A DNA stretch of 64,000 bases. It comes from Ekhidna sp. (GTDB lineage Bacteria; Bacteroidota; Bacteroidia; Cytophagales; Cyclobacteriaceae). Every line of letters starts with the position of its first letter. The stretch's first letter is position 1. Below the pieces are notes generated by a model that was not told the DNA's origin, did not search any database, and saw only the letters and a list, made by a program, of their open reading frames with translations. Where the stretch lies: assembly GCF_964218185.1 (NCBI RefSeq), contig NZ_CAXPLV010000012.1, forward strand, positions 9,034 through 73,033. Direction: 5' to 3'. Below, piece by piece: positions 46,295 to 63,958 of the stretch. Position numbers and translations under genes: made by a program.

Positions 46295-46505
46295 CAGTCA
46301 TTAAACGTCTTTCAAATTCCTCGAAATTCAGATAAGGTTCTTTACTCTCCTTCATCAACTTGTAGTCCTCATGTACTACTTTCTGATTAGATATAAACTC
46401 ATCGTCTTCGTTGATAATGGTCAGGTCATCACCTTTTAATGTTTGTAGAGACTTAATTAACCTTTCGTATATTTTATCGCTTACTTGTAGTCTGATCGTA
46501 TGCAT
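46287..46505 (-). CDS. Putative antitoxin
   Basis: 72 aa, upstream of and overlapping the toxin by 8 nt, with an acidic C-terminus (LNFEEFERRL). Confidence 0.65.
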   Translation of the reverse strand: MHTIRLQVSDKIYERLIKSLQTLKGDDLTIINEDDEFISNQKVVHEDYKLMKESKEPYLNFEEFERRLMTDD

Positions 46506-46517
46506 CTTCCCTCTAAA

Positions 46518-48593
46518 TTAATTGATTTGCTCCAAAGCTTCCTCAACAGTTGTTACGGGTCGTTTGCATGATTTGTTAAAGCAAACGTAGATAGTGGTCT
46601 CACCATTTACTGCAGTTTTACCTTCAAATGGAGCCTTATCTGTTGGCTCTTTGGTACCGGATATTATCTTGTTGGGGATGAACTTTTGGTTGAGTTCATT
46701 GACAAATTGACCAGCCTTAGGTCCTACAACAATCACCTCCGCAAAGTTCTCAGAAAGTTCCATGGCCAGTTCACCCCAGTTACTCATATACTCCGGTTCC
46801 TGAATGATGAGCTCACGAACTTGTGCCAAAATGGACTTCCCTTTATTGATGAGTTCCTCATCATAGAAGTGAGTACCCAAATGAATCAGGTTCCAGGCCA
46901 TGATCGAATTAGATGAAGGGATCACATTGTCAAAAAGCTCCTTCTTTCTGGCAATCAAATCAGCACTTGCTTCACTTGAGAAATAGTACAGATTTTCACT
47001 TTCATCATAAAATGCTGCTTCAGTTCTATTCATCAATTCCTGAGCTAATTCTAAGTAGTCTCGATCCAGGGTAGTTTCATAATATTTAATGAATCCCTGA
47101 ATGACCGCTGCATAGTCTTCCATAAAGCCTTCCATTTGCTTGTCAGGAAATCTTCTCAATACCACATCCTTTACCAGATGGTTTTTAATAAATTCAGCAT
47201 TGATACTGGCTAAATCAAGAATAGAAGAATCTTGCAGGGCTTGATACGCTTCAGCTAAACCTGATAGTGAAAGTCCATTCCATCCGGCAATTAATTTATG
47301 GTCCAATCCCGGACGAATTCTATTTTCTCTTGTTTCTAATGCATTCTTTTTAAAAACTAAGATTTTATTGCTGAAAGCTTCCTTGCTTAGACTGTATTTC
47401 TCTGCAATAGCAGCTTCATCATTCACCACTCTCAATGAATTCTTTCCCTCCCAATTACCTTGCGGTTGCACATCGTAATACTCGGCGATCATATTAAAGT
47501 CATCACCAGCTAATTCTTCAATTTCTTCAGCTGTCCACACGTAAAACTTTCCTTCCTCACCTTCACTATCCGCATCCAGGGCTGAGTAGAACCCTCCAGA
47601 CTCATCAAGCATTTCTCGTTTCAACCATCCCACCGTTTCAAGTATTGTTCGTTTGAATTTCGGGTTTTGAGTGAGTTTGTAGCCATTGGCATAGAGACTC
47701 AGTAGCTGTCCATTATCATACAGCATTTTCTCAAAGTGGGGGACATGCCATTCTTCATCGGTACTGTACCTAGCAAAACCACCACCTATGTGATCATAGA
47801 TACCTCCATCGGCAATTTTCTCAAGCGTGAATTCAAGGTGCTTAAAAGCATCTTTGTTTTGAGTTCGGTGATAGTAGGAAGCAAGAAACTGCCAAACAGA
47901 AGGCATTGGAAATTTTGGTGATTTTTTAATTCCTCCATCCACAAGATCAAACTTCCCTGCCAGCCTTTGGTAAGCCGCCTCAATATCTTCTGATGATAGG
48001 TTGTGATCAGTTCCTTCAAGTTTATATTTTTCTGATTCTTTGGCCTGAAGGCTTTTTGTGAAAGCCTCTGCCGACTCATTGATTTTATCCCGGTTGGTCT
48101 CGAAAGCCTGGTTGATACTGGTTAGTAAGTTTTTCCAACCCTCTTTTGGGAAGTAGGTGCCTCCATAGAATGGCTTTTGGTCTGGGGTTAGGAAAACATT
48201 GAGTGGCCACCCGCCATTGAGCCCCATCGCTTGTACGGCATCCATATATACCTGATCTACATCGGGTCGTTCTTCACGATCTACCTTGATATTGATGAAA
48301 TGCTCATTCATAATTTTGGCTACCGCAGTGTCTTCGAAGGACTCTTTTTCCATTACATGACACCAGTGACAGCTGGAGTACCCAATGCTCACCAGGATGG
48401 GTTTGTCCTCTTTTTTTGCCTGACTCAAGGCTTCCTCACCCCATTCTTGCCAGTTAACAGGATTGTGCGCATGCTGTAGGAGGTATGGGCTTGTGGAGTT
48501 GATGAGATCGTTGGTGTATGTATGCATTTCATTTTGGCTTTTTGGTTGGCAAGCTGTCGCAGCGATGAAAAAGAAAAGAATGTATTTTTTCAT
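46518..48593 (-). CDS. Thioredoxin-domain protein, YyaL/SSP411 (DUF255) family, lipoprotein
   Basis: [48 protein letters not shown] and [10 protein letters not shown]. Confidence 0.93.
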
Positions 48594-49543
48594 AAAAGCT
48601 GCTTCTTCAGTTCTTCGATTTCAACACTCACATTTACTTTTTGATTCAACTTTTCAAGCTTGCTCAACGTGCTTTTGATAAACTGCTGATGTGAGTTTGA
48701 CTTGGGCTGAAATGGTTTATGCTTGATAGCTGATTTTAACTTTTCCCAGTCATCTAGAAATGCTTTAGACTCATTGTCAAAATAAGTTTCAACAAATCGT
48801 TTCCAGACATAAAGGATAGCTTGATCAGATGGATGTATCATGTCTGGCTTGAAAAAACGATAGTCTCGCAGTTCATCCATTACTATTTCAAAGGAAGGGA
48901 AGTAGGAAACATTTTCATAGGGTTCAACAATCTCGTGTACAGCATCGATTAGGATCGCCTTACTTCGATTGTTTTCAACAAGTCCATCCCGGACGTGTCG
49001 GACAGGGCTAACTGTAAAAATGATGTTAAGCTCTGAATTAGCTGCTCTCAGATAGGAGTAGAGCTTGTTAAACCGCTCCATGATTTCGTTGTGATTTAAA
49101 AACCTTTTCGAGAAAGATGAGGAAGGAACCTTATGACAATTGGCGACAATCGAGCTATCCTTAAGTTCGTAAACAATTGATGTACCCAGGGTGATAATCA
49201 ACCATTTGCTTCGAGTAAGGAATTCATTCGATAGGTCTACCTGTCTCCTAAATGATTCGATGGTCTTTTTAGAACTCAACCCTGAAATGGAGCCGTGAGC
49301 ATCCCAGTGATAAAACACTCCATGGCTTTCAATCAGGTTATCAACTTGTACATCATTTTGTAGCAATTTGAAAAGCGAGATCGGATTGTATATCGTTCCA
49401 AATGGGTTGGAAAGAGTGTCAAACTTATTGTCTTTTAGGAGCGTCCCGATCTCATCTGAAAAGCAGGAGCCCATCAAGTAGATGGGGTCAGAAAGACGAA
49501 TCTTATCCTCAGATTTAGGTATGTCGAAGTTGAGTTTAAACAA
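48590..49543 (-). CDS. GSCFA domain-containing protein
   Basis: [44 protein letters not shown] and DMIHPS. Confidence 0.9.
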
Positions 49544-49573: not shown

Positions 49574-50860
49574 TTACTCGTCAGCTTTCAAACTCACCAT
49601 CACTGGCCTGTGGTCAGATACTTGAGTAAAGTAGCTGGAAACACAGTTGTCAAGTTTTACGGTGTAGGATGACAACAAATTATCACAGAGCTCATTTGTC
49701 AATAGAATATGATCCAGGTGGCTAGGCCAGCTAGGATAGCTGAAATCCGAGGATGAGCCACTATTAATCGGTAGATCAGCAAAGATGTAATCCTCCGAAT
49801 CGCTGATAAAATTGCTAAATGAGTTCGCCCCATTCACAAAATCCTCATTCCAGTCACCAAGAACAATCACCTCTTTATCCGGTAGGTTTGAGTCAATGTA
49901 GCTTTTGAGTTTGTTGCTAGCATCCACTCGTTGGCTGATGTCTCCGGAACCGCCACAACATTTTAGGTGAATGTTCAATAGCTTCACTGAAAGCCCATTG
50001 CTGTGAGTGATATCAACAACTACCGGATCTCTAGGTCCGATCCCAAGGTTAAGCTCCGCAGGAGATGTGTGAGAGATGATCTCGCTGGTTTTAAAAATGA
50101 AGCCGAGATCGAGGCTACCTCCAATGTTTACTACTTCACCATCATAGCCATTTAGAGAACTCACCAATGAATTGAATGAGGAAATGTCATTGATTTCCTG
50201 GATGGCATAAACGTCAGCATCCAAATCCAATATGATATCTTTTACTTTGGATATGGTGGTACTCCCAGAGGTTGGGAAAAACTCAAGATTCCATGTTACA
50301 ATATCTAAATCGTCACTACTTAAGCCAGGTGTACAAAGTGTGGTGCCGGTCGTATAAGTGGTTCCATTACAACTTCCGGAACCCGTGTTGTTTCCTCCTC
50401 CAGATCCACCACCAGGTTCGGTTATAAAAATTTTGGTCGTAGGATTTACCCCAACATTGATCAGACTTGAACTTCCTCCCGTTATTGTGAATTGTAGTGA
50501 GTCAATTATTGTATCCGAGTCAGGGATAGGAGCTACTACAATGGTACTTTGTGTTGACCCCACGCTGAAAGGAATAGTTAGCACATTGGATTGTGTGCCT
50601 GGTTGAGTGGTAAAGTCCGTGTCATACTCGGCATTATACTCTGTCAGCTCTACTTCGATGGCTCCATCAAAATCAGCCTCCGAATCAAACTGAATGATGA
50701 TAACATCAGCTGTTTGCGTTTCGGAAATATTTTGAGTCGATTTTCTGAAACTAACAGTTAATTCAGTTCCTACAGGTTCATCGTTGCTACCACCACAACT
50801 CACAAACATCACACCAATGGCAATGGCAATCAATAATTTTTTCACTCCTCTACTTTTCAA
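49574..50860 (-). CDS. Lipoprotein endonuclease/exonuclease/phosphatase (DNase I-like) with N-terminal Calx-beta/Ig-like domain
   Basis: Lipobox FVSC; TWNLEFF, AIQEI, HLKCC, LGDWNE, LDHILL and SDHRPV catalytic motifs; Gly-rich linker. Confidence 0.88.
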   Translation of the reverse strand: MKSRGVKKLLIAIAIGVMFVSCGGSNDEPVGTELTVSFRKSTQNISETQTADVIIIQFDSEADFDGAIEVELTEYNAEYDTDFTTQPGTQSNVLTIPFSVGSTQSTIVVAPIPDSDTIIDSLQFTITGGSSSLINVGVNPTTKIFITEPGGGSGGGNNTGSGSCNGTTYTTGTTLCTPGLSSDDLDIVTWNLEFFPTSGSTTISKVKDIILDLDADVYAIQEINDISSFNSLVSSLNGYDGEVVNIGGSLDLGFIFKTSEIISHTSPAELNLGIGPRDPVVVDITHSNGLSVKLLNIHLKCCGGSGDISQRVDASNKLKSYIDSNLPDKEVIVLGDWNEDFVNGANSFSNFISDSEDYIFADLPINSGSSSDFSYPSWPSHLDHILLTNELCDNLLSSYTVKLDNCVSSYFTQVSDHRPVMVSLKADE

Positions 50861-51845
50861 TTAAAATATAAACAGGAAAGTGGTCGCTGTAACCACCAAT
50901 GTACTTATCATACGAAAACGAACGCCATGGTGATCCGGCATACTGACCGCTTTTTTGGCGCATCCAGTCAGGCCCAAACACACTGAAAGTTTCTGGTTTA
51001 TAGGTGATGCCTGAGTCCTCAATTAAGCCCTGACTGATGATGATCTGGTCGAACATATTCCAAGCCCCGCGATATGAAAGTGAACCAAACCCTTGCTTAA
51101 ACGTCTCTGCAGATGTGTTAAAAAGATCACCATCTTCCATTTTTTTCAATCGATCTGAAGCCCGCAATTCTTTTTTGATGGAAGCATTCCTGGGGTCGTC
51201 ATTGAAGTCGCCCATCAAGATGATTTTTGCCTTTGGATTTTCTGTGAGGATAGAGTCGACCGCTTGTCTTAATAGTGCCCCGGCTTGATTTCTTTTTTCA
51301 GGGCCACTTCTCCTGGATGGCCAATGATTCACAGCCAGGGTGATCGTATCACCAAAATAAATACCGGTGCAAAGAAGAATGTCCCTGGTGAAATAGCCTT
51401 CTTCAGGATAGGTCAGCCATGTAGAATTCAGCACCTCAAATCGATTTTTCTTGTATATCAACCCCACATCTATTCCGCGCCTGTCCGGTGAGTTTTTATG
51501 CACAATTTCATATTGATGGCCTCTAAGCTGTGGAGTAGCCACCAGGTCCTCGATCACACCCCGATTTTCAATTTCTGACAAGCCGATGATGTCGGCACCC
51601 CGGGCCATGGTGCTCAATACTTTAGATAATTGAGAAAGTTTGTCTTGATATCTTTCTTGATCCCATTGTTTGCTGCCATCCGGCAGATATTCTTCATCAT
51701 TGATTTCAGGATCATCCGTGGTGTCAAATAGATTCTCCACGTTGTAAAATCCAATAGCTCCCACTACTTGCTTTTGAGCGTGAGCTGATACGGTATTTAA
51801 GTAAAAGGCTGCAAGAAAGACTTTCGTCCAGATTCTAAATTTCAT
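50850..51845 (-). CDS. Secreted endonuclease/exonuclease/phosphatase family nuclease
   Basis: Signal peptide ending AHAQ; FYNVENLFD, LSEIEN, NHWPSRR, MGDFND, FDQII and YSDHFPV. Confidence 0.9.
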   Translation of the reverse strand: MKFRIWTKVFLAAFYLNTVSAHAQKQVVGAIGFYNVENLFDTTDDPEINDEEYLPDGSKQWDQERYQDKLSQLSKVLSTMARGADIIGLSEIENRGVIEDLVATPQLRGHQYEIVHKNSPDRRGIDVGLIYKKNRFEVLNSTWLTYPEEGYFTRDILLCTGIYFGDTITLAVNHWPSRRSGPEKRNQAGALLRQAVDSILTENPKAKIILMGDFNDDPRNASIKKELRASDRLKKMEDGDLFNTSAETFKQGFGSLSYRGAWNMFDQIIISQGLIEDSGITYKPETFSVFGPDWMRQKSGQYAGSPWRSFSYDKYIGGYSDHFPVYILIEK

Positions 51846-52219
51846 ACTGCAAAATTGAGGTATTTTATTTTCACATTGAGTTATTATCCTAAATGAGATT
51901 GTTAGCTATTTAATAACTATAATCTCAAAAAGGTAATGTTCACGTAATGTTTTTCATCTCATAAGTGGACGTATTGCCATTTTGATGGGTTTGCTCTGCT
52001 CTGTCCATTTTACCCCTTTGTTGTTTGTCTAACTATTTGAAAACTGCTTTAAAAAGTTCTGGCAGTGAAAAATGAGATTGAGCTTATTTAGTTCTATAAA
52101 GAATTCTGTACTTGAATACCTACAGTTGAATTTACTTTTCACCACTTTCTGTAATTTCTGTTACGCCTTGATTTTGAGAAATTTGTCGGAAAGATATAAA
52201 CCACAATACAACCTTACCT

Positions 52220-54937
52220 ATGCTGAAGAAGGCACTATTACTCACCCTCATCTTAGGGTTTGTAATTCATTTAACCACCGCTCAAAGTACCGGAGTAGTT
52301 AGTGGTACCATTAAAGATAAACGACTGGACGAGGGTCTCATTGGAGCCACAGTGATTTTAAAAGGAACACCCTATGGGTCTATGACTGGGATAGATGGTG
52401 GTTTCACCATCAAAGATGTACCGACAGGCACCTATACTCTCAAAGTATCATACATTGGGTTTAGCTCTATCGAACAGTCAGTAACAGTTGGAGGAGGTAC
52501 AACCACCGTTGGTGATCTATACCTTGAGGAAGAGGCTATAGGTCTGGATGAAGTTCAGGTTTTTGCATCTGTAGTGGAAGAGCGTAAGTCACCGATCGCC
52601 ATTTCAACTTTCAATGCACAGCAACTGGATGAACGTTTCGGAAATGTTTCCCTTGCTGAAGCCATCCAAAACACCCCTGGTGTATATACCATCCAAGGTG
52701 CCGGAGGGTATGGTGATCAGGAAGTATACATTCGAGGATTCGATCAGTCCAATGTGGCTTTTCTTGTCAATGGAATCCCGGTAAATGACATGGAGAATGG
52801 ACGAATGTTTTGGTCAAACTTTGCAGGACTGAGTCAGGTAACACGTACCACCCAGGTACAAAGAGGATTGGGAGCTTCTAAATTAGCTGTGAGCTCTATT
52901 GGTGGTACGGTAAACATGATCACAAAGCCTTCTGACCGAAGCGAAGGAGGAAGAATAGAATATCAAACCGGAACGGGATCCTGGAATAACCGACTAAGAT
53001 TCACATACAACACAGGAGAGTCGAATGGATGGGCATTTAGCTTTCAGGGTACACGAACTACTACAAGCGCACCACTTGGAGGGCTATCCTCATTGAAGCA
53101 AGGATCAATTGTTCCGGGCGCTTACACAGACGCATGGAGCTATTACATTGCTGCATCGAAGAAAATTAATAACAATCACCAGTTGATGTTCTGGGCATTC
53201 GGAGCTCCGGTGAACAGAGGAACTGCATTTGTAGTAGATGATCAAACGCGTGAGATATTCAACATTGATGAGCCAATGGCAAACAATGCGCTTGGTATTT
53301 ACCGAGGTGAATTATTTAATGCTCGTCAAAACAAAGTGAATAAGCCACTGACGGCATTGACTCATTATTGGGATCTGGATGCTAATACTAACATTACTAC
53401 TTCTATCTATTATTCAAGAGCTAAAGTTTACTCGGTTCAGCCTCAGGATGCTGAATCTTCTGTGTTCTTTGTGGATCGATCAAATCCGAATTTAGTTGGA
53501 AACGAGATTACTCCGGATAACCTAATCAATTGGGACTATCTATCTGAGCAAAATAGAGATGCTTCAAGAGAGATGACTGTACCGTATCCAAATGGTGACC
53601 CGAACACACCAAGTGTAACAGGCTTTGCTTCTCAATATTATTTGGAGTCTAGGCATAACAATCATGACTGGGTGGGGCTGGTGAGTAATTTCACCAAGAC
53701 CATCAATCGTTTAAGAGTCCGAGGAGGAATTGACTTAAGGTATTATCGTGGTGAACACTATGCTGAAGTATTTGACTTGATGGGGGGAGATTTTATCCTT
53801 CAGGAAAATAGATTTGGTGATGCATTTAACAAATTGGATACAGAAAATGCCATTGGCAGAAAGGGAGATAAGACCAATTATTTCTATGACGGAATTGTAA
53901 ACTGGTATTCCCTCTTTGGTCAGGCTGAATACTCGCTGGATAAGCTGGATTTATTTGCATCTGCTACGCTCACCTTTTCTGACATGCAGCGAATTGGATA
54001 CTTCTGGAATGGAAGTGACTTTAATGACTACAGTTTGAATTCTCTTGGTGAATCAGAAAAGAAAACATTTGCTACATACACCTTCAAGACTGGAGCTAAC
54101 TACAGAATTACCGGAAGACATAATGTTTACGGAAATGCTGGTTATTTCACACGTCCGCCATTCTTCAGAAGCTCTTTCAATGACGCCCGGTATTCAAACC
54201 AATACAGGACGGGTCTAACTGAAGAGCAGGTGTTGTCCGGTGAATTAGGGTATGGCTATCGGACTTCATTCTTAAAGGCAAATGTGAACGCCTACTATCT
54301 ACTGTGGTCAGATCGGACAACTGAGTTTAACCAGGAGAATCAGGGGCCTGATGGAGCGCCTAACTTTATTCCAATTGTCTTGAATGGACTTGTTTCTGAG
54401 CATAAGGGGATAGAAATCGACTTTACTTACAATGTGATTTCTTCATTGGAGTTGAACGGATTCCTTGGTTTGGGAGACTGGACCTGGAAAGAAGTACCTG
54501 GACAAGAAGTTTTCCTCGATGATGGTTCATCTGTTTTTGTGGATGATCTGTCAATCATGGAGGGTCTGCCAGTAGGCACCTCAGCACAAACTACCGCTGG
54601 TTTTGGTTTTCACTATAGAGGCATCAGAAGCGCCTACATTGGAGGTCGTTTACGATACGCAGATCGAATTCCTATTCGATACAGCCCCGAAGACATAGCG
54701 GAAGGCTTCATCACCCGTGAAGTCATTGAAAATGAATTTGATGATTATGCCACTTTCGATCTATATGCTGGACGCTACTTTGACATTGGTGAGAATATGT
54801 CCGGTAGACTTTCCATCAGCGTGCAGAATGTATTCAATGCAGAATACACCCGCTGGGCGAGTTATTTCTTTAGCCAGGTGCAGCGAGGCTATGGCTACCC
54901 ACGAACATACACCATTGGTTTAAGCATTGATTTCTAA
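52220..54937 (+). CDS. TonB-dependent outer membrane receptor with N-terminal carboxypeptidase-like regulatory domain (not SusC-type)
   Basis: GTIKD..LIGATV..G.FTI N-domain, plug IRGFDQSNVAFLVNGIP.NDMENG...VQRGLG and C-terminal YGYPRTYTIGLSIDF. Confidence 0.92.
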   Translation: MLKKALLLTLILGFVIHLTTAQSTGVVSGTIKDKRLDEGLIGATVILKGTPYGSMTGIDGGFTIKDVPTGTYTLKVSYIGFSSIEQSVTVGGGTTTVGDLYLEEEAIGLDEVQVFASVVEERKSPIAISTFNAQQLDERFGNVSLAEAIQNTPGVYTIQGAGGYGDQEVYIRGFDQSNVAFLVNGIPVNDMENGRMFWSNFAGLSQVTRTTQVQRGLGASKLAVSSIGGTVNMITKPSDRSEGGRIEYQTGTGSWNNRLRFTYNTGESNGWAFSFQGTRTTTSAPLGGLSSLKQGSIVPGAYTDAWSYYIAASKKINNNHQLMFWAFGAPVNRGTAFVVDDQTREIFNIDEPMANNALGIYRGELFNARQNKVNKPLTALTHYWDLDANTNITTSIYYSRAKVYSVQPQDAESSVFFVDRSNPNLVGNEITPDNLINWDYLSEQNRDASREMTVPYPNGDPNTPSVTGFASQYYLESRHNNHDWVGLVSNFTKTINRLRVRGGIDLRYYRGEHYAEVFDLMGGDFILQENRFGDAFNKLDTENAIGRKGDKTNYFYDGIVNWYSLFGQAEYSLDKLDLFASATLTFSDMQRIGYFWNGSDFNDYSLNSLGESEKKTFATYTFKTGANYRITGRHNVYGNAGYFTRPPFFRSSFNDARYSNQYRTGLTEEQVLSGELGYGYRTSFLKANVNAYYLLWSDRTTEFNQENQGPDGAPNFIPIVLNGLVSEHKGIEIDFTYNVISSLELNGFLGLGDWTWKEVPGQEVFLDDGSSVFVDDLSIMEGLPVGTSAQTTAGFGFHYRGIRSAYIGGRLRYADRIPIRYSPEDIAEGFITREVIENEFDDYATFDLYAGRYFDIGENMSGRLSISVQNVFNAEYTRWASYFFSQVQRGYGYPRTYTIGLSIDF

Positions 54938-54942
54938 GAAAC

Positions 54943-56919
54943 ATGAAAAAATTAATCTATATACTTTCAATCGTTTGCCTCTTTGCTTCATGTAAACCAG
55001 AGGATGTGATTTCAGGTCCTGCGCTTTCCTTTTACCCAACCACCGTAGCTACTGCAGTGGAGGAGGACGAAATCACGTATGTACTTTCATTGGAGACTTC
55101 AGGTCTCGTGAATTCAGGTACAGCTACTATAGAGGTAAGCCTCTCTGCAGAGGGAACCATTTTTACTAACCCGCCGCTTTCCGGCAATACGCTGACATTG
55201 GATATCACAGAGGGCACCACTGCACAAATCGAAGTGACGGTGCTTAATGACCTTACACCGGAAGATTATACAGCTAAGTTCAGAATCACGGATGTTTCCG
55301 GTGATCTGGGAGGGATAGGAACCAGCGAATTCACCCTGTTTGTACTGGACAATGATAATGTTCCAATATACCAGGAAGACTTTAACGCTGGATTAGGATC
55401 ATTTACTGCTTTCAGTGAGGAAGGTGCCCAGGAGTGGGGAGAGACTGATTTTGGATTTGAAGGTGCAGGTGCTCGAATGAGTGGCTTCAGTGGCGGTCCG
55501 CAAGACAATAAAGACTGGCTTATTTCTGAAGCTGTGGATTTAAGTGGCTTGACCTCTGCTTCTGCACAGTTTGTGTCTGACGTGGCTTTCGAAGTGGAGC
55601 CTGTGCTGGAGTTTAGAGTATCTACTGACTATGATGGTTTGGGTGATCCTACTACTGCGACATGGACAACACTTGAGGCTTCTTATGATACGCAAACCGG
55701 TTTTGATACATGGACGCCTAGCGGAAAAATAGATATCAGCAATTACCTGGAGGCAGAAACCTATTTTGCTTTCTATTACACCTCAAATACGGATGTATCC
55801 GCACAGTGGACCATCGATGACTTTGCGATCTCGGTGTTCAACCCGGATGCCAGTGGAGGTGGAAATGAGAATTTAGTGAATCTACCATTCTCAGAAGATT
55901 TTGAAAATTGTACTACCGATTTCGCTATTCCATCAGCGTTTGATGTGCAGTATGCTTCCAATTCCAAAGATGACAGAGGATGGGGATGCCGTCAGTTTGG
56001 GGTAGATAATTCCCGAGCTGTGCGTGTAAATGCTTTTGGGGGAGATGCGGGTACTGCAGACACCTGGCTGATCACTCAAAACAAATTCAATTTGAGAACT
56101 GTTGGGAAAGCCTCTTTACAGTTTGATGTAAAATCAGCATCAGCTGGTGATGGAGAGTTAAAAGTCTATTACAGTACAGATTACTTTGGTGTATTAGCCC
56201 TGGCTACATGGGAGGAACTAACTGACGTGACAGCACAGCTACCTACAAAGGGTTCTGATACTTATACTACGGTAAATACTACTATACCTGGTGGCGATGT
56301 GGTATATCTGGCGTTCCAGTTTGTGGGAGGTACTGAGAGTGGTTCTTCATCTTACGATATAGACAATATTGTACTGGATGAATTGAATGTCGAATTAACA
56401 CTTCCATTTAGTGATGATTTTGAAAATTGTTCTGAGGCTGGTGAGTACAATATGCCGGAAAACTGGATAGAGGAGCTTGTACCAGGGTTCAATACTGATA
56501 GGGGATGGGGCTGCCGTCCATTTGGAAGATCAGGTAACGGTGTGCAGGCAAGTGCGCACAATGGAGATGCAGCATCGGATAATGCTTGGATGATCTCTGC
56601 CGGAAGGTTCGATCTTTCGGGACTTACATCTACTACGCTGGAATTCTATGTAGAATCATTCTTCGATGGAGATGGAGGAATCAAGCTATTGTGGTCAGAA
56701 GATTATGCTGGTAGTGGAAATCCTGAAAATGCAACATGGACAGAGGTAACAGACGCTACCTCACAATTCCCAGCATCTGGCTCAGGTGGGTTTGTGCTGG
56801 TGAGCACCAATCTTGATGCAGCCATAGGAAAGACGATTCATATTGCATTTCAGTATGAGTCCAGCTCCGGAAATGCATCATCTTGGACGATAGATGATCT
56901 GACTTTTACCGGAAGTTAA
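54943..56919 (+). CDS. Surface lipoprotein with three choice-of-anchor J / DUF5017-like beta-sandwich repeats
   Basis: Lipobox FASC; three repeats of F.EDF...W...DWLI...DLS...Y.TDY.G...ATW..L...Y.AF.Y...W.IDD. Confidence 0.75.
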   Translation: MKKLIYILSIVCLFASCKPEDVISGPALSFYPTTVATAVEEDEITYVLSLETSGLVNSGTATIEVSLSAEGTIFTNPPLSGNTLTLDITEGTTAQIEVTVLNDLTPEDYTAKFRITDVSGDLGGIGTSEFTLFVLDNDNVPIYQEDFNAGLGSFTAFSEEGAQEWGETDFGFEGAGARMSGFSGGPQDNKDWLISEAVDLSGLTSASAQFVSDVAFEVEPVLEFRVSTDYDGLGDPTTATWTTLEASYDTQTGFDTWTPSGKIDISNYLEAETYFAFYYTSNTDVSAQWTIDDFAISVFNPDASGGGNENLVNLPFSEDFENCTTDFAIPSAFDVQYASNSKDDRGWGCRQFGVDNSRAVRVNAFGGDAGTADTWLITQNKFNLRTVGKASLQFDVKSASAGDGELKVYYSTDYFGVLALATWEELTDVTAQLPTKGSDTYTTVNTTIPGGDVVYLAFQFVGGTESGSSSYDIDNIVLDELNVELTLPFSDDFENCSEAGEYNMPENWIEELVPGFNTDRGWGCRPFGRSGNGVQASAHNGDAASDNAWMISAGRFDLSGLTSTTLEFYVESFFDGDGGIKLLWSEDYAGSGNPENATWTEVTDATSQFPASGSGGFVLVSTNLDAAIGKTIHIAFQYESSSGNASSWTIDDLTFTGS

Positions 56920-56929
56920 ATGAATATAG

Positions 56930-56964
56930 AAAAGGGGCAATGCAGCAATGCAGTGCCCTTTTTT
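56930..56964 (+). terminator. Intrinsic terminator between the lipoprotein gene and the giant T9SS gene
   Basis: aaaaggggca...tgcccttttttt imperfect hairpin with a T tract. Confidence 0.65.
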
Positions 56965-57016
56965 GTTTGAATAAAAACCTTAATTGATATAAACCTAAAC
57001 CGCAATTAATACGATT

Positions 57017-60000
57017 ATGAAACACTTATACCGCATCGGGCTACTGTTCTTCGGACTGTTCGCCCTCACAAATTTTGCCAGTGGGCAGAATGCTTGGATC
57101 AATGAATTTCATTACGATGACGCAAGTGGCGATCAAAATGAAATGGTAGAAATTGTAATTGAAAATGCTTCAAGTTATACATTGTCTGATTTTGTTGTAA
57201 CGAAATATAATGGAAGCGGAGGCGCCAGTTATGGATCAGATGATGTAAGCACATTTATTGTAGGGGATGTTTACGGAGATTTTACTTTATATTATATAAT
57301 CTACCCCACAAATGGTTTACAGAACGGAGCGCCTGAAGGTCTTGATTTAAGCTATCAGGGCACTTCATTACAGTTTTTAAGTTATGAAGGTACTCTTACG
57401 GCTGTTGGAGGCCCGGCAGATGGTTTAACTTCTATAGATGTAGGGGTTAGCGAATCGGGATCTGTTGAAGGAAGCTCACTTCAGTTGGCAGGATCAGGAA
57501 CTCTATATTCAAATTTTACGTGGCAAGATGAGGCTACTGCTACACCAGGTATAGCAAACAATGATCAAACAATAGGTGCTGATGAAACCGCTCCATCCTT
57601 TACATCAGGACCTACAGCAGTAAACATAACCGGGAATGGATTTCAGGTTACTGCTCAGTCAGATGAAGATGCAACGCTATACTATGTAATCGATGATAGC
57701 GGCACGCCTACAGCTCAGGAAATAAAAGATGGTCAGTTAAGTGGAGGAGCTACAGCAACCTACGCTGGTTCACTTGCGGTTTTAGAAGCTGAGGAAGGTA
57801 CAGTCACCATTTCGGGCTTGGCTAGTGCTACCGCTTATGATATACACTTTACTATGGAGGATGCTGCAGGAAATTTAACTGCGGTATCCACACTTACTGA
57901 CGTAACTACAGCAGCAGCTGATGCAGCAGCACCTGTCTATCAAAATAGTACTCCAAGTGCATCAAGTATTACGGATGTATCCTTTGACCTGACAGTTCAG
58001 TTTGATGAAATAGGTACGGCATATTATGTGGTTGTTGCAGACGGGTCAACACCAGCACCTTCAAGTGCACAGGTAATGGCCGGTACAGACGGATCAGATG
58101 CAGCAGCAATCGCCAGCGGAACAATTGATGTTACATCTGCGTCAATGGATTTTTCAAGTTCAATATCAGGATTGTCAGTTGCTACTGCTTATGATGTGTA
58201 TGTCGTTTCAGTAGATGATGAGACCACACCGAATGTGCAGGCAACACCATCCATGATAGATGTGAGCACTACGACGGATACCACCCCACCAACTGTTGAA
58301 AGTGCAGCTACTTCTGTAAGTGATGTTTCTTACGATGTAAACCTGACCATGTCAGAAAATGTAACTGCAACGGATGAATCAGGTTTTACTATTAACATCA
58401 ATGGAAATCCTGCTACTATCTCAGATTTTGGAGTTGTAGACAATAGCATAGGCTTCCTTCTGAATGAGCCAATTTATGCAGGAGATGTAATAACAGTAGA
58501 TTATGATGATACTCAAGGAGATGTTGCTGACTTGGCAGCAAATGCATTGGCTTCTTTTACAGATCAGGCAGTAATCAATAATGCTACTACAGTATTGGTT
58601 GATGATATTGCTACACTAAGAACTGGTGCTACTGATGGGACAGTGTACCAACTAGGAGGCAGTGCCATCGTTCACTCTAAGCAGAGTTTTAGAAATCAAA
58701 AATGGATTCAGGATGGGACAGCAGCTATCTTAATAAATGATAATCCTAATGGAAATTTTGGTGCCGGATATATCACAACAGACTATCAGATAGGTGATGA
58801 AATTCCAGGGGGACTTACTGGAACATTAGATCTCTCTAATGGTCAGTTAAAATTTGAACCAATTGATGGATATGATCCTGGAACTGCACTATCAACAGGA
58901 AATGAAGTAGCTCCACAGGTTATGGCACTAAGTACTTATAATGCCAATTATCAAGACTTGGAGAGTCAATTAATTACTGTGGAGGCAGTTACATTCAGTG
59001 ACGCTGGCACAGGTTTCTCTAATGGTGTGAATTATGATATTGTTGATGGAGGTACTACAGGTGCCTTCAGAACAGAGGTGTTTGCGTTTAGTGGAAATGA
59101 TATTCCTTACGGTAGGGTAGACATTACTTCACCAGCAGGTCGATATAATACAACCCCACAGCTGCTAGGACAAAGTATTACGGATATAGTAGACAACTAT
59201 GCGCCACAATTTACGGTAGCTCCTGCAATCGTGAATGTGTATACGGATGGCGCTGATATCACATTTCAGGCTGATGAACCTGGTACAGTATATTACGTTG
59301 TTCAGCTGAGTGGTACAGCTGCACCAACGGTCGGAGACATCTTTGTAACCGGAACAACATCAGGATATACAGCTGTGGGAACAGAAACAGGCTTCACTAT
59401 TTTTGATTTGGCCGATGGGCAGAGCTATGACCTTTACATTGCAGCTGAAGATGATGAAACTTCACCAAATCAGCAAAGTGCTTATGTGTTGCTTGAGCTA
59501 ACAATCCCTGAAATCACCAACGATGAAAACACTGACATCACAGCGTTGGCATCACCAATCGCACAGACAGACATTTCTTCGCTTGCAGACACTGATCTGG
59601 AAGCTGTAGATGTATTTGGATTCACTTTGACGGACGAAGGTACTGACGGGGTGAGCACCTTTGTGGATGGTATTGTGATCACGGCAGGAACGAACAACAC
59701 AGCTGACTGGAGTACAACCATTGCCGGAGCGGTATTGTCCGACGGCACTACGGATATTACTCTTACAGTAGATGCAGGCTCTATGTATGCAGACCTCTCT
59801 TCTGCTCCTTATGAGTTGGCTAATAATACAGCACAAGAGTTCACACTATCTATCTGGCTGAATACTTCTGTTACGGATGGTGATGTGCTTGAATTTGAGA
59901 TCGGAACTTCGCATTTATTTTCTGCTACTATTGATGGCTCTCTTTTCTTAAATCCAATAGCTTCAGCTGTGACAAGTGCGCAGCATACAGTGGATGTAGA

Positions 60001-63000
60001 GGCAACAGCGTTTGTTTTGGATTATCCAATTTCAGTTGGAATAGATACTGATTTTGATTTAACAGTGACTGCAGAAGATGAAAATGGGAATCTTGACAAT
60101 GTATTTAGATCAGTCTCACTCACAAAAGAGACAGGACCCGGTAATTTGTCATCAGTTAATTTCTTAACTGATCAGGCGATGATTGGTGGTTCGATCACAT
60201 TTCAAGATCTACAACTTGATGCCGCTGGGGACTACACACTCACCGCTGCTGAAAGTGGTGGGTTAGCAGCAACAACAGAAACGATATCTGCCTCATCAGT
60301 AATTACAAATGTTGAGGATTTTTCAAATTTCCCAGAAACATCCTCAAGCTACAACACAGGAACATTTACTGGAAATGATGGTTCTACATGGAGTTACGTC
60401 AAAACTAGTGGTAATAGTGGAGAGCAAATTAATGCTCCCAGTCCTATCCTGGGAAGAAATCAATCTCCGGCTGCAGAAGTAACCTCAGGTACAATATCAG
60501 GAGGTATTGGTGTTTTAAGTTTTGATTACCAGCAAGCCTTCAGTACTAATGTAAACCTTGAAGTATATGTTAATGATGAGCTAATAACTACAGTCACAAC
60601 CAGTAGTGAGCAGGATGTATTGAAAAATTCAGGTGATGTTGCAGTAGATATTTCAGGTGATTTTGTTCTGTCTTTCAGACAGCCGTCTGGTGCAGGTCAA
60701 GTGACTATTGATAATATTACTTGGACTACATATTCTGGAACTTCACCCAGTATAGTTGTGGATCAATCTAGCTTTGACGGAGTATTTGGAAGTGTTATTG
60801 AAAATGAGACCAGTGAATCAAGGTCTTATTTTGTCTCAGGTTCCAACTTAACAGAGAACATTACTATAGCAGCCCCGTCAGGATTCTCAGTTTCAACTGA
60901 TAACTCTACATTTACCCCAGGTGTAACATTAACTCAAGAGGATGGTACGGTATCAAGTACTGAGGTGTTCGTAAGATTTGAACCAACTTCGGTGCAGAGT
61001 TACTCAGGAACTATCACTCATACCTCAGCAGGGGCCAATCAGAGAACTGTGGAAGTCTCAGGATCTGGAATCTCTGCGAACGTCATTTTTGTTGAGGATT
61101 TTGCATCATGTCCGTCAGGTCAGATGACCACATTCAGTGTGGCAAGTAACCAAGATTGGGGTTGTACATCTAATGGAAATTCTAATAATGCAATGGAAGC
61201 GAATGGTTTTGGAGGAGATGTGGCGAGTGACGATTGGTTGATAACACCAGCAATTGATCTTTCCGAGGTTAGCAATGCTGTTTTAAGCTTCTATTCCTGG
61301 ACTCAATTCTCGGATGCGATTCATCCACCATTGACAGTGAAGGCTTCAACAGATTATTCAGGTTCAGGTGACCCAACTGTGGCAAATTGGACTGACCTAT
61401 CTGCGATTTTGGCAGCACAGAACTCAACGACATGGACAGCTTCAGGTGATGTTGATTTAACTCCATACATAGGTGGAAACGTGTATATCGCTTTCAGATA
61501 TACAACCACAGGAACTTCTGGCAGCACAACGTCAGCCTGGAGAATTGATGATGTCATCGTCGAAGAGGGTGTTGCAGTAGCTACTCCATTCATAACTCTT
61601 GTAGATGATGGATTTAATGGTGCTTTTGGATTTGTTGAATTTGGAAATCAGTCAGAAGTTTCTTCGTATACAATTACTGCGACGGACCTTTCAGAAGACC
61701 TTATCGTTACTCCGCCAACAGGTTTTGAGCTTTCTGCGACAGCTGCTTTTGATGGTACAGTTTATACAAATTCAAGTGCTTGGGTAATAACACCGATTGA
61801 TGGTGATGTAAATCAGGAAGTTTTTGTTCGTTTCAACCCAGCCGTAGCGGATGGGGCTGTTTATGGTGGTGATATTAATCATGAAAGTACAGGTGCTGAT
61901 TCTAAAACCATTCCAGTAAGTGGTCAAGAGGGTGTTTTGTTGCCTGATTTATTTTTCTCAGAGTATTTGGAAGGTTCAGTAGGAACAAATAAGGCATTGG
62001 AAATTTACAATGGTTCAGGTGAAGTGGCCGACTTAACCAAGTATCAAATTCAAAGAATTACGAATGGGGGAAGCGGGTCAACCGCAACTTTTGAAATGTC
62101 TACAATTTCTGCTACTATGGATGCGGGAGCAGTAATTGTAATAGCCAATTCTACTGTTCAGGAAGTGTTAGATGCAGCGGATTTGGAAGATTCCTTCATC
62201 AATCATAATGGCGATGATGTTTATACACTTTTGAAGGACGGAATTATCATTGATATTATAGGAGAAAACTCTGGTGTTGATCCGGGTGATGGATGGGAAG
62301 TAGCCGGAGTAGCCGATGGTACAAAGGATCATGTTCTTGTGAGAAAACCATCTGTTTCTCAAGGAAATCCTGTTGCTCTTGCCTCCTTTGGAACAAGTGA
62401 GGAGGATTCAGAGTGGATCGTTTTATCTGATTCAGAGACATCTGGGCTTGGAAGTCATGGTACGGAGCAAGAAGGAGATCCAATCATCACAGTGACTTCT
62501 TCCATTAGCACCAATTTTGGTGTTGTTCAAGCTGGATCGACTGTTGAACAAGCTTATTCGGTTTCAGCAGTTGATTTACTTGGAGATCTAACGATTACTG
62601 CACCTTCAGGATTCTTAGTTTCAACCGATGGGTCCACTTTTACTGCCTCCGTGGACCTTTCACCGACGGATGGTACAGTGGAATCAACGACCATTACGGT
62701 TCAGTTTGCTCCAGATGCTGAAGGTGAGTTCACTGGTAGCATTTCTCACGAAAGTACCGATGCACTGACAAAGACGCTTGCGGTATCCGGTACTGCGGTA
62801 GGTGATGATGTGATTTACTTTGAGAACTTTTCAAGTTGCGATGCACTAAATACAATGACTTCCCAGTCGATTAGTGGTGATGAAGTGTGGGAATGTACTC
62901 CTAATGGAGAAACAGGTGGTGGAGCTCGTATGAATGGATATAGTGGAGGAGCTCAGGATAACTTAGACTGGTTAATCACTCAAGGAATTGATCTTTCAGC

Positions 63001-63892
63001 TGTTGATGCGGCGAATTTGAGTTTTGATAGCGACGTTCGGTATGATGGTCCTGCTTTAGAGGTTTATGTTTCAAGTGATTACACCAATGATGCAGATGCT
63101 GCTACCTGGACTAAGTTAACCGTGGTTTTGGATGAAGATTCTGATAACTTTGATACCTGGACTTCTTCAGGAGATATTGATCTATCTGACTATACAGGTT
63201 CAACCATCTATATCGGGTTCCTATATACATCCAGTACAGTTGATGGAGCCGCTACTTGGTCTATTGACAATGTCAAGGTTACAGAAACTCAGCCATTCCT
63301 ATCAACAGATGTTGCTAGCCTTGGTGATTTCAACCAGGTAGATGTAGGATCAGTCTCAGCTAACAAATCATTCACTGTGGAAGGTTTTGGACTCACTGCT
63401 GATGTGATCATCACGCCTCCTGCTCAGTTTGAGGTTTCTACTACCAGCAACTTTGCTGCTAAAGGAACAAGTACTTCTGCACTTACTATTTCACCAACAG
63501 ATGGTGCAGTAGATCAGCAGGTGTTTGTACGATTTGCCCCAACAGCAGCAGGTAGCTTCAGTGGAAACGTAACTGTGGAGTCTACTGGTTTTGATGACAT
63601 TACATTGAGCGTTTCCGGTGCGGGCGTTGATGATGAGGAGCCTGCTCTTGGCTTGGATGATGAGTTAGATTTTGTGATCTATCCAAACCCGGTTAAGAAT
63701 GTTTTTGAAATCAATAATCATTCAGGTAAATCTATTTCAGTGGAAGTGTTTGCCCTCGACGGTGCTAAAATGTCCGTGAAGAAAACAGGCAATACCTATG
63801 ATATCTCTTCTTTGAATAGTGGTGTGTATGTGATCGTGATCACTGATGAAAACAGTGCAGAGCTCGCGAAGCGCCAGATCATCAAAGAATAG
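57017..63892 (+). CDS. 2291-aa multidomain T9SS type A protein (lamin-tail, FN3-like, SwmB-like, OB-fold-like, choice-of-anchor J-like, ASH/Ig-like domains)
   Basis: Signal peptide ending ASGQ; WINEFHYD and FFSEYLEG..KALEIYN lamin-tail motifs; repeated modules; IYPNPV..SGVYVIVI..IIKE CTD. Confidence 0.88.
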   Translation: MKHLYRIGLLFFGLFALTNFASGQNAWINEFHYDDASGDQNEMVEIVIENASSYTLSDFVVTKYNGSGGASYGSDDVSTFIVGDVYGDFTLYYIIYPTNGLQNGAPEGLDLSYQGTSLQFLSYEGTLTAVGGPADGLTSIDVGVSESGSVEGSSLQLAGSGTLYSNFTWQDEATATPGIANNDQTIGADETAPSFTSGPTAVNITGNGFQVTAQSDEDATLYYVIDDSGTPTAQEIKDGQLSGGATATYAGSLAVLEAEEGTVTISGLASATAYDIHFTMEDAAGNLTAVSTLTDVTTAAADAAAPVYQNSTPSASSITDVSFDLTVQFDEIGTAYYVVVADGSTPAPSSAQVMAGTDGSDAAAIASGTIDVTSASMDFSSSISGLSVATAYDVYVVSVDDETTPNVQATPSMIDVSTTTDTTPPTVESAATSVSDVSYDVNLTMSENVTATDESGFTININGNPATISDFGVVDNSIGFLLNEPIYAGDVITVDYDDTQGDVADLAANALASFTDQAVINNATTVLVDDIATLRTGATDGTVYQLGGSAIVHSKQSFRNQKWIQDGTAAILINDNPNGNFGAGYITTDYQIGDEIPGGLTGTLDLSNGQLKFEPIDGYDPGTALSTGNEVAPQVMALSTYNANYQDLESQLITVEAVTFSDAGTGFSNGVNYDIVDGGTTGAFRTEVFAFSGNDIPYGRVDITSPAGRYNTTPQLLGQSITDIVDNYAPQFTVAPAIVNVYTDGADITFQADEPGTVYYVVQLSGTAAPTVGDIFVTGTTSGYTAVGTETGFTIFDLADGQSYDLYIAAEDDETSPNQQSAYVLLELTIPEITNDENTDITALASPIAQTDISSLADTDLEAVDVFGFTLTDEGTDGVSTFVDGIVITAGTNNTADWSTTIAGAVLSDGTTDITLTVDAGSMYADLSSAPYELANNTAQEFTLSIWLNTSVTDGDVLEFEIGTSHLFSATIDGSLFLNPIASAVTSAQHTVDVEATAFVLDYPISVGIDTDFDLTVTAEDENGNLDNVFRSVSLTKETGPGNLSSVNFLTDQAMIGGSITFQDLQLDAAGDYTLTAAESGGLAATTETISASSVITNVEDFSNFPETSSSYNTGTFTGNDGSTWSYVKTSGNSGEQINAPSPILGRNQSPAAEVTSGTISGGIGVLSFDYQQAFSTNVNLEVYVNDELITTVTTSSEQDVLKNSGDVAVDISGDFVLSFRQPSGAGQVTIDNITWTTYSGTSPSIVVDQSSFDGVFGSVIENETSESRSYFVSGSNLTENITIAAPSGFSVSTDNSTFTPGVTLTQEDGTVSSTEVFVRFEPTSVQSYSGTITHTSAGANQRTVEVSGSGISANVIFVEDFASCPSGQMTTFSVASNQDWGCTSNGNSNNAMEANGFGGDVASDDWLITPAIDLSEVSNAVLSFYSWTQFSDAIHPPLTVKASTDYSGSGDPTVANWTDLSAILAAQNSTTWTASGDVDLTPYIGGNVYIAFRYTTTGTSGSTTSAWRIDDVIVEEGVAVATPFITLVDDGFNGAFGFVEFGNQSEVSSYTITATDLSEDLIVTPPTGFELSATAAFDGTVYTNSSAWVITPIDGDVNQEVFVRFNPAVADGAVYGGDINHESTGADSKTIPVSGQEGVLLPDLFFSEYLEGSVGTNKALEIYNGSGEVADLTKYQIQRITNGGSGSTATFEMSTISATMDAGAVIVIANSTVQEVLDAADLEDSFINHNGDDVYTLLKDGIIIDIIGENSGVDPGDGWEVAGVADGTKDHVLVRKPSVSQGNPVALASFGTSEEDSEWIVLSDSETSGLGSHGTEQEGDPIITVTSSISTNFGVVQAGSTVEQAYSVSAVDLLGDLTITAPSGFLVSTDGSTFTASVDLSPTDGTVESTTITVQFAPDAEGEFTGSISHESTDALTKTLAVSGTAVGDDVIYFENFSSCDALNTMTSQSISGDEVWECTPNGETGGGARMNGYSGGAQDNLDWLITQGIDLSAVDAANLSFDSDVRYDGPALEVYVSSDYTNDADAATWTKLTVVLDEDSDNFDTWTSSGDIDLSDYTGSTIYIGFLYTSSTVDGAATWSIDNVKVTETQPFLSTDVASLGDFNQVDVGSVSANKSFTVEGFGLTADVIITPPAQFEVSTTSNFAAKGTSTSALTISPTDGAVDQQVFVRFAPTAAGSFSGNVTVESTGFDDITLSVSGAGVDDEEPALGLDDELDFVIYPNPVKNVFEINNHSGKSISVEVFALDGAKMSVKKTGNTYDISSLNSGVYVIVITDENSAELAKRQIIKE

Positions 63893-63930
63893 TAAGACAA
63901 CTAAGGAAGCAAGAGCTTAGGCTTTTGCGG

Positions 63931-63958
63931 AGGGCGGCACAAGGTGTCGCCCTTTTTT
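63931..63958 (+). terminator. Intrinsic terminator after the giant T9SS gene
   Basis: agggcggcac-aag-gtgtcgccct followed by TTTTT. Confidence 0.85.

Follow-up and report, generated by a model that had tools for sequence, protein, structure and literature searches.

A window of 64,000 nt (the whole stretch of DNA analysed) from the genome of Ekhidna sp. (3.63 Mb in 12 contigs) was examined for a putative locus for the utilization of extracellular DNA. The locus comprises five open reading frames (ORFs), P0001–P0005 (Table 1), all of which are present in the ORF list of the window at the coordinates given in a preliminary description of this DNA. P0001 and P0002 encode EEP enzymes and are transcribed divergently from the genes for a TonB-dependent transporter (P0003), a lipoprotein (P0004), and a giant cargo protein of the secretion system of type IX, T9SS (P0005). 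No genes encoding SusD, glycoside hydrolases, peptidases, or regulators of the hybrid two-component system (HTCS) or extracytoplasmic function (ECF) types were found in the 42–64 kb part of the window and the first 5 kb past its end. The preliminary description had reported both this absence and the arrangement of an EEP pair facing a transporter, a repeat lipoprotein, and a giant T9SS protein across a 374-nt spacer, and the gene content corresponds to it gene for gene. It had further characterized the two EEP enzymes as exported and catalytically intact, one with a lipobox and the other with a signal peptidase I (SPI)-type signal, the lipoprotein beside the receptor as a triple-repeat protein, and the giant protein as containing lamin-tail and OB-fold-like regions; these statements are borne out by the analyses of the individual proteins. 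Signal peptides and lipoboxes were called by eye.

P0001 contains a lipobox (...VMFVSC) with the cysteine at position 22. A beta-rich, Calx-beta-like module occupies its N-terminal part (aa ~23–150), and amino acids 188–417 match the Exo_endo_phos family PF03372 with an E-value of 6.8e-11. Residues N191, E222, H298, D336/N338, D383/H384, and D416/H417 are invariant in 11 aligned sequences, and most of these catalytic residues are conserved by at least 95% in a set of 18 sequences. The only matches in NCBIfam were weak ones with exodeoxyribonuclease III and the MnuA membrane nuclease. A single-sequence search of the PDB with P0001 gave no match; in a search with the family profile, the nearest entries were the EEP protein 9sf8/9sf9, Tdp2, and ExoIII.

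The signal peptide of P0002 is of the SPI type and ends with ...NTVSAHA/QKQ; the protein is predicted to be exported by this signal and is probably periplasmic. It matches the family PF19580 (Exo_endo_phos_3) from end to end with an E-value of 3.3e-112 and shows a weak match with ExeM/NucH (48.8 bits). The alignment of 14 sequences contains 61 invariant columns, including those of E91, H174, D213, N215, D321, and H322, and N35/E37 are likewise invariant; most of the listed catalytic residues are conserved by at least 95% in 35 sequences. The PDB searches with P0002 gave only weak matches, namely Nocturnin and 9sf8, and neither sequence nor profile searches of the PDB found a close solved relative of either EEP protein. 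All weak relatives of P0001 and P0002 act on nucleic acids or nucleotides and none is a lipid or inositol phosphatase, which weakly suggests one direction, towards nucleic acids. The genome encodes a single other PF19580 protein besides P0002, located on contig 8 after secDF. It has no signal peptide and thus appears to be a cytoplasmic paralogue, the family being represented otherwise in this analysis by exported nucleases.

P0003 shows a CarboxypepD_reg-like N-terminal domain (CarbopepD_reg_2, E-value 1.3e-20), a Plug domain (1.1e-15), and a barrel. The SusC signature TIGR04056 was not matched by P0003.

P0004 is a lipoprotein in which Cys17 is followed by KPED. A Calx-beta-like N-terminal module precedes three choice-of-anchor J (CAJ)/DUF5017 jelly-roll modules, which were recovered with a hidden Markov model (HMM) built in this analysis; the model NF038128 matches P0004 in three stretches (1.9e-37). 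Within this genome, CAJ modules are confined to the locus. The family model of M949_1556 lipoproteins (NF052645, cut-off 475 bits) gives 161 bits with P0004 and 160 bits with P0005, in both cases through the C-terminal CAJ part of the model only, and no protein of the genome reaches the cut-off. P0004 matches no SusD family. The AlphaFold2 model of P0004 (pLDDT 78.7) is all-beta with four beta domains, and Foldseek matched it with MAM, CBM22, gingipain cleaved-adhesin, reelin, and SGBP-B folds. P0004 is likely a surface binding protein associated with the transporter.

The giant protein P0005 has a multi-domain structure, in which Fn3/SWM repeats are followed by a DUF5689 module (PF18942), two regions without family match, Ig-like modules, a CAJ module, a lamin-tail domain, a second CAJ module, and a type A C-terminal sorting domain of T9SS. 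According to the searches in Pfam and NCBIfam, it contains no recognizable catalytic domain. The two unassigned stretches (aa 830–1240) are ~200 aa each, and the second ends with a weakly CAJ-like sequence (aa 1168–1236, E-value 0.16). A second lamin-tail domain at the N-terminus was not confirmed (Pfam E-value 0.13, no pairwise similarity). The DUF5689 module was overlooked by the whole-protein scan; it scored 45 bits when aa 520–760 were scanned alone and 43.8 bits in the genome scan (cut-off 28.6), and it corresponds to the OB-fold-like region of the preliminary description.

The structure of aa 520–745 of P0005 was modelled in AlphaFold2 using an alignment of 13 sequences. The model (pLDDT 87, pTM 0.82) consists of two OB-like barrels, that is, a tandem OB fold. 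According to Foldseek, its best matches in the PDB are the HINab domain of p204 with double-stranded DNA (E-value 2.8e-6) and Teb1 AB. Further matches are HIN domains of IFI16, p202, AIM2, and MNDA, including 4jbm, the entry used for DdbD, a protein of the system described below. P0005 is proposed to be a DNA-capture scaffold.

Two other DUF5689 proteins are encoded outside the window. One of them is a 1041-aa T9SS cargo on contig 5, adjoining recR, which unites Endonuclease I and DUF5689 with an Ig-like module and a sorting domain; from its domains it is predicted to be a second secreted DNA-binding nuclease. The fusion of DUF5689 with a T9SS Endonuclease I ties the module to DNA. The other is an orphan 472-aa lipoprotein on contig 4 with Calx-beta and DUF5689 modules, whose N-terminal module is similar to that of P0001 (30% identity, E-value 7e-9) and which may act in trans.

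Table 1. Features of the locus, domains of P0005, and other sequences mentioned in the text. Positions are those of the window unless a contig, an amino acid (aa) range, or another locus is given.
Feature	Position	Strand	Description
P0001	49574–50860	minus	428 aa, TTG start; EEP lipoprotein; 11-nt overlap with P0002
P0002	50850–51845	minus	331 aa; signal-peptide PF19580 EEP nuclease (predicted)
Divergent spacer	51846–52219		374 nt, between P0002 and P0003
Direct repeat in spacer	51933–51951		19 nt, GTAATGTT-CAC-GTAATGTT
P0003	52220–54937	plus	905 aa; TonB-dependent transporter (predicted)
P0004	54943–56919	plus	658 aa; triple CAJ lipoprotein; 5 nt downstream of P0003
P0005	57017–63892	plus	2291 aa; T9SS cargo (predicted); 97 nt downstream of P0004
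Intrinsic-terminator-like hairpin	63929–63955	plus	12 pairs and T tail; closes the transporter operon
P0005 DUF5689 (PF18942)	aa ~527–750		Pfam match ~557–724
P0005 CAJ modules	aa 1361–1522 and 1937–2095
P0005 lamin-tail domain	aa 1644–1749		E-value 8e-13
P0005 type A T9SS C-terminal domain	aa 2221–2289		E-value 7.5e-11
GSCFA gene	48590–49543	minus	downstream of P0001
DUF255 thioredoxin gene	46518–48593	minus	downstream of P0001
ParE-family toxin ORF	46010–46294	minus	overlaps the priA start by 4 nt
Gap upstream of ParE-family ORF	46295–46517		220 nt
Endonuclease I–DUF5689 protein	L015:8846–11971 (contig 5)		1041 aa
Orphan DUF5689 lipoprotein	L014:9936–11354 (contig 4)		472 aa
Paralogue of P0003 and the two genes after it	L010:8575–12953 (contig 7, about 170.6–175.0 kb)		844, 387, and 204 aa; outside the window
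Second PF19580 protein	contig 8, 491898–492863		after secDF
Near-match of the direct repeat	contig 8, 277042–277060		intergenic
Fused frame of the closest Ekhidna relative	L071:9989–18703		2905 aa

The preliminary description had mentioned a locus of gut Bacteroides in which nucleases and a TonB-dependent transporter serve DNA degradation. Such a locus does exist, namely ddbABCDEF of B. thetaiotaomicron (Sharan et al., PNAS 2025; PMC12478041). The signal peptidase II (SPII)-type proteins DdbA and DdbF and the SPI-type protein DdbB are nucleases with DNase activity in vitro, DdbC is a TonB-dependent transporter, and DdbE is a further lipoprotein (PMC12478041). DdbD is a DUF5689 protein that was modelled atop DdbC and resembles the HIN domain of p202, which binds double-stranded DNA (PMC12478041). 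The locus is needed for the depletion of DNA and for the production of uracil and xanthine (PMC12478041). The BT3558–BT3563 region encodes BT3563, a DdbF homologue; this EEP lipoprotein is an extracellular DNase that shapes bile-dependent biofilms (PMC8851478). The published census of ddb loci covers gut Bacteroidales at >50% identity, and T9SS is unmentioned in the text of that paper (PMC12478041).

A second related system is known from Riemerella anatipestifer, where the outer membrane protein RA0C_RS04915, which has a CarboxypepD_reg domain, is essential for natural transformation (PMC8459023). The adjacent RA0C_RS04920, a choice-of-anchor J protein with DUF5689 and DUF5017, is likewise essential for transformation (PMC8459023). 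According to the authors of the ddb study, DdbC and DdbD are homologous to this pair, and a ddbB-like nuclease adjoins it (PMC12478041). In the present work, homology to the Ddb and Riemerella proteins was examined via Pfam and NCBIfam models and synteny.

The Ekhidna locus and ddb have in common a DdbB-like PF19580 nuclease of the SPI type beside a non-Sus TonB-dependent transporter, a DUF5689 tandem-OB module with an HIN-like fold, and, by prediction, one or more lipoprotein EEP nucleases together with an extra surface lipoprotein. They also share the logic of a polysaccharide utilization locus (PUL) without SusD, carbohydrate-active enzymes, or a regulator in the locus. By sequence, P0003 appears to be a non-SusC-type TonB-dependent transporter of the DdbC/RA0C_RS04915 superfamily and P0002 its DdbB-like partner; by analogy, P0001 would correspond to the SPII-type nucleases DdbA and DdbF (BT3563 type), as a predicted surface lipoprotein. 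Unlike in ddb, where DdbD is a small lipoprotein encoded beside the transporter gene, DUF5689 is here one module of the 2291-aa T9SS cargo, and the position of DdbD is taken by the gene of the triple CAJ lipoprotein. In addition, the locus encodes one predicted surface nuclease as against two in ddb, and its host is a marine aerobic member of the Cytophagales, whereas ddb belongs to gut Bacteroidales.

With the Riemerella-type loci, the Ekhidna locus shares transporters of the same supported clade, a divergent PF19580 nuclease, and DUF5689 and CAJ/DUF5017 modules. In Riemerella, both modules are fused in one lipoprotein of ~450 aa, whereas here they are split over the 658-aa lipoprotein and the giant T9SS protein. 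The window also has an extra EEP nuclease predicted to be at the surface, P0003 retains a clear Plug domain, and the NF052645 score falls short of the cut-off (161 bits as against 475).

A more distant resemblance was noted with the ExeM/NucH nucleases. Amino acids 1644–1849 of P0005 (lamin-tail and Ig-like domains) match positions 25–204 of ExeM, and P0002 weakly matches the EEP domain. In contrast to ExeM, the lamin-tail domain (P0005) and the EEP domains (P0001 and P0002) are located on separate polypeptides, neither GlyGly-CTERM nor another ExeM anchor is present, and the family models score far below their cut-offs (NF033680, 63 versus 1300 bits; NF033681, 48.8 versus 300 bits). The SusCD-type PULs similarly combine, within one locus, a TonB-dependent transporter with binding proteins and a hydrolase at the surface and a further hydrolase in the periplasm, whereas SusD, TIGR04056, glycoside hydrolases, and HTCS/ECF regulators are missing here.

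The nearest named relatives of the locus, as judged by the transporter, are found in metagenome-assembled genomes (MAGs) from the order Cytophagales, namely those of Ekhidna, whose transporter is 85% identical, Roseivirgaceae, and Fulvivirga. The preliminary description had named the gene neighbourhood of receptor orthologues as a check of its reading. Among 18 named relatives (Ekhidna, Fulvivirga, and Roseivirgaceae), receptor orthologues do co-occur with nucleases, the divergent pair of PF19580 nuclease and transporter being kept in 16; the nuclease is 43–81% identical to P0002. An EEP lipoprotein of the P0001 type is present in the loci of 15 of these relatives. Four genomes of the same family have a true P0003 orthologue (43–66% identity); the CAJ lipoprotein and a divergently oriented PF19580 nuclease accompany it in each of them, and the EEP lipoprotein in three.

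M949_1556-type lipoproteins were surveyed in 401 sampled genomes of the phylum, 12 of them from this family. Near-full-length NF052645 matches were detected in 43 genomes, which belong to five other families, whereas the 12 genomes of this family gave no such match. Two of the matches above the curated cut-off carry an N-terminal DUF5689 (E-values 1e-56 and 1e-48). The outer membrane protein beside one such lipoprotein, the only one scanned, has CarboxypepD_reg as its sole Pfam match, in agreement with the Riemerella annotation. In 13 of 16 M949_1556-type loci, a PF19580 nuclease (35–43% identical to P0002) is divergent from the transporter, which is followed by the DUF5689 and CAJ lipoprotein. 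The EEP lipoprotein of the P0001 type was found in none of these 16 Riemerella-type loci.

When 14 transporters flanking M949_1556-type lipoproteins were searched back against the Ekhidna genome, P0003 was the top match for 12 of them and its contig-7 paralogue (38% identity to P0003) ranked second; every remaining TonB receptor of the genome scored 53 bits or less. In the maximum-likelihood tree, the P0003 group, the Riemerella-type group, and the contig-7-type group (supported by 100%, 100%, and 99%, respectively) form a clade with 97% support in the SH-like approximate likelihood ratio test (SH-aLRT). The ten further receptors of this genome that the tree includes all fall outside this clade. 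Transporter homology thus places P0003 in the right superfamily, and the neighbouring genes are what marks the P0003 group as equivalent to the ddb and Riemerella loci.

The possibility that the true ddb transporter of the genome is the contig-7 paralogue was rejected, since this paralogue has no nuclease, DUF5689, or CAJ neighbours. Its gene is followed by genes for proteins of 387 aa and 204 aa, neither of which has a Pfam or NCBIfam match. Orthologues of the contig-7 type are commoner in this family than those of the P0003 type and have no adjoining nucleases, except for an EEP lipoprotein in one locus (L036). The contig-7-type system might correspond to another ddb type.

The layouts of the proteins encoded downstream of the transporter were read with HMMs built in this analysis. 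The arrangement of three CAJ modules is found in the window and in L074, L075, L079, and L081. In other relatives, the order is CAJ-CAJ-DUF5689 (L083), DUF5689-CAJ-DUF5689 (L080), or CAJ-DUF5689-DUF5689 (L088), and L085 and L086 have DUF5689 only. Giant T9SS proteins with one or two CAJ modules contain DUF5689 in the window and L071 and lack it in L077, L082, and L084; the giants of these four relatives are orthologous to P0005. In seven relatives, the locus includes a Calx-beta and DUF5689 lipoprotein, encoded immediately downstream of the transporter or of the CAJ lipoprotein, while its homologue in the present genome is the orphan of contig 4. Among the proteins downstream of the transporter, the DUF5689 and CAJ modules are shuffled differently in different genomes. 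In the closest Ekhidna MAG (L071), a single frame of 2905 aa joins a sequence corresponding to aa 1–842 of P0003 to the giant protein, and there is no CAJ lipoprotein; the arrangement reflects either a deletion or the collapse of the assembly.

Taken together, these data make it probable that the locus is a ddb-type outer membrane system with which the cell captures extracellular DNA, cuts it, and takes it up. As far as sequence comparison goes, it appears to be a Cytophagales version of the ddbABCDEF/Riemerella DNA-uptake family, so that the kind of system is already known from publications of 2021, 2022, and 2025. Its distinctive traits are the link to T9SS, the giant non-catalytic DUF5689 scaffold, the triple CAJ lipoprotein in the position of DdbD, and the shuffling of modules between genomes. 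The preliminary description had interpreted the locus as a PUL-like system for nucleic acids with a T9SS-secreted component, and this view accords with ddb in the synteny of nuclease and transporter, the HIN-like DUF5689 module, and the putative surface EEP lipoprotein, all compared at the level of sequence and model.

According to the proposed mechanism, P0005 would be exported by T9SS, and its DUF5689 tandem-OB and lamin-tail domains would hold double-stranded DNA at the cell surface, where P0001 would cut it. P0004 would cap P0003, as DdbD or SusD do with their transporters, and hand the fragments over. P0003 would then import the fragments into the periplasm in a TonB-driven manner, and P0002 would digest them to nucleotides, from which most likely phosphorus and nucleosides would be salvaged. 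The gene and domain content, the homology and synteny with the Riemerella-type loci, and the HIN-like fold of the model were observed in this analysis, whereas the localizations, the sequence of steps, the choice of DNA over RNA as the substrate, and the nutritional purpose are part of the proposal. RNA may be a co-substrate alongside DNA.

Several observations weigh against this interpretation. The TM-scores of the HIN matches of DUF5689 are low (about 0.3), though the Foldseek probabilities are 1.0. As judged by the models, the CAJ modules seem to be a generic MAM/CBM-like jelly roll with no sign of DNA binding and are silent on the ligand. The transporter tree is an unresolved three-way split, in which the contig-7-type clade is equally related and has no adjoining nucleases; therefore, transporter homology alone does not fix the substrate. 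P0003 is only 22–28% identical, over its length, to the Riemerella-type transporters, and it is by way of the Riemerella-type loci and of family models (Pfam and NCBIfam) that the locus is linked to the Ddb proteins of B. thetaiotaomicron. Given this 22–28% identity to Flavobacteriales-type transporters, P0003 is also very unlikely to belong to the subtypes Bt1, Bt2, Pv1, or Pv2, which are defined by >50% identity and >75% coverage to the subtype DdbC (PMC12478041 methods). Moreover, DNA is a poor sole source of carbon, nitrogen, or phosphorus for B. thetaiotaomicron (PMC12478041), so that a nutritional role is not assured.

Among DNA feeding, natural transformation, and the trimming of matrix DNA, the presence of a predicted surface nuclease favours degradation. 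If the locus were the outer membrane stage of natural transformation, the scaffold and the lipoprotein would bind double-stranded DNA, the transporter would import long DNA to the periplasm for ComEC and DprA, and the nucleases would only trim or convert it. The homologous RA0C_RS04915 and RA0C_RS04920 are indeed essential for transformation (PMC8459023), a divergent PF19580 nuclease likewise flanks the Riemerella-type loci, and ComEC and DprA are encoded in the Ekhidna genome. However, ComEC and DprA are also encoded by non-competent controls such as E. coli and B. thetaiotaomicron and thus do not discriminate, the genome has no M949_1556-type protein at the cut-off (161 versus 475 bits), and competence is not known in Cytophagales. 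A surface EEP nuclease, moreover, would shorten incoming DNA. Such an enzyme is encoded here and in 15 of the 18 relatives, the 16 Riemerella-type loci have none, and the degradative ddb loci carry such enzymes; feeding is therefore favoured, and we regard transformation as unlikely.

It is very improbable that the locus mainly remodels matrix DNA, affecting the architecture of biofilms or aggregates or the detachment from particles, with import being secondary. With its adhesin-like modules, the giant scaffold at the surface could attach cells to matrices rich in DNA, and BT3563, the EEP lipoprotein of the ddb region, is an extracellular DNase that shapes biofilms (PMC8851478), but the transporter and the signal-peptide nuclease are kept together with the surface proteins in nearly all relatives, which argues for uptake and further breakdown and not for the trimming of matrix alone.

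EEP enzymes also include sphingomyelinases and inositol phosphatases. A different substrate, either another phosphodiester polymer or a lipid (RNA, polymers resembling teichoic acid, or the head groups of phospholipids, for example), with the jelly-roll modules binding glycans, would agree with the lack of close characterized or solved relatives of both EEP enzymes, the resemblance of the CAJ modules to carbohydrate-binding module (CBM) and MAM folds, and the paralogous transporter clade without nucleases, but is very improbable in view of the HIN-like DUF5689 module, the lamin-tail domain common to ExeM-type nucleases, the homology to two systems linked to DNA by experiment, and the nucleic-acid-acting weak relatives of both enzymes.

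As for the regulation of the locus, the divergent spacer contains a perfect direct repeat with a period of 11 bp (Table 1). Relatives have the sequence AATGTT-N5-AATGTT on the opposite strand, at the corresponding position of the alignment. The genome contains a single further intergenic near-match of the repeat, with at most two mismatches, on contig 8 between a gene for a phosphate-selective porin (Porin_O_P) and a Na/Pi-cotransporter-PhoU gene. Genome-wide, the motif is not enriched over shuffled sequences (45 versus 48–66), and the looser AATGTT-N5-AATGTT also occurs upstream of unrelated genes encoding a UvrD-like helicase, RNase E/G, an aminotransferase, and others, as judged by eye. As a hypothesis rather than a finding, the repeat could be a Pho-box-like operator and provides a lead to phosphorus. 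TAnnTTTG, the promoter motif of Bacteroidetes, does not occur in the 374-nt spacer, and a sigma-70 scan of the spacer was uninformative.

A tentative and rather doubtful extension of the DNA-import interpretation is that, in the Ekhidna-type branch, a T9SS scaffold of ~2300 aa replaces DdbD and works as a “fishing line” for DNA, holding DUF5689, lamin-tail, and CAJ modules far from the surface. In this scheme, DUF5689 and CAJ modules would be interchangeable ligand-binding cassettes, exchanged among the surface proteins that go with this transporter family, and the 11-bp-period repeat, common to the spacer and the promoter of the phosphate porin and Na/Pi-cotransporter genes, would act as a phosphate-starvation switch. 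If true, this would be a dedicated system for mining phosphorus from dissolved marine DNA. Dissolved and particle-bound DNA represents a large marine pool of organic phosphorus and nitrogen, and marine Bacteroidota are leading polymer degraders, while studies of the ddb family have been confined to gut Bacteroidales and a bird pathogen. The finding of the same core of transporter and nuclease in marine Cytophagales, joined to T9SS and a very large modular scaffold, provides targets for studying the route of DNA to a TonB-dependent transporter, the length of the DNA passed, and the division between feeding and gene uptake by lineage.

The limits of the locus are 49574–63955. Beyond the hairpin that closes the transporter operon, there is a convergent gene without assigned function, followed by rplI and rpsF. 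On the other side, the GSCFA gene and the DUF255 thioredoxin gene, which lie downstream of P0001 on the same strand, were considered as members of the operon and rejected, since they adjoin the locus only in Ekhidna-like relatives and a TAATTTTG motif precedes the GSCFA start. This motif is of the -7 type and is located immediately upstream of the start; a weak hairpin is present at the P0001 stop. Further along, an ORF encoding a ParE-family toxin overlaps the start of priA, and the gap upstream of this ORF could house an antitoxin gene.

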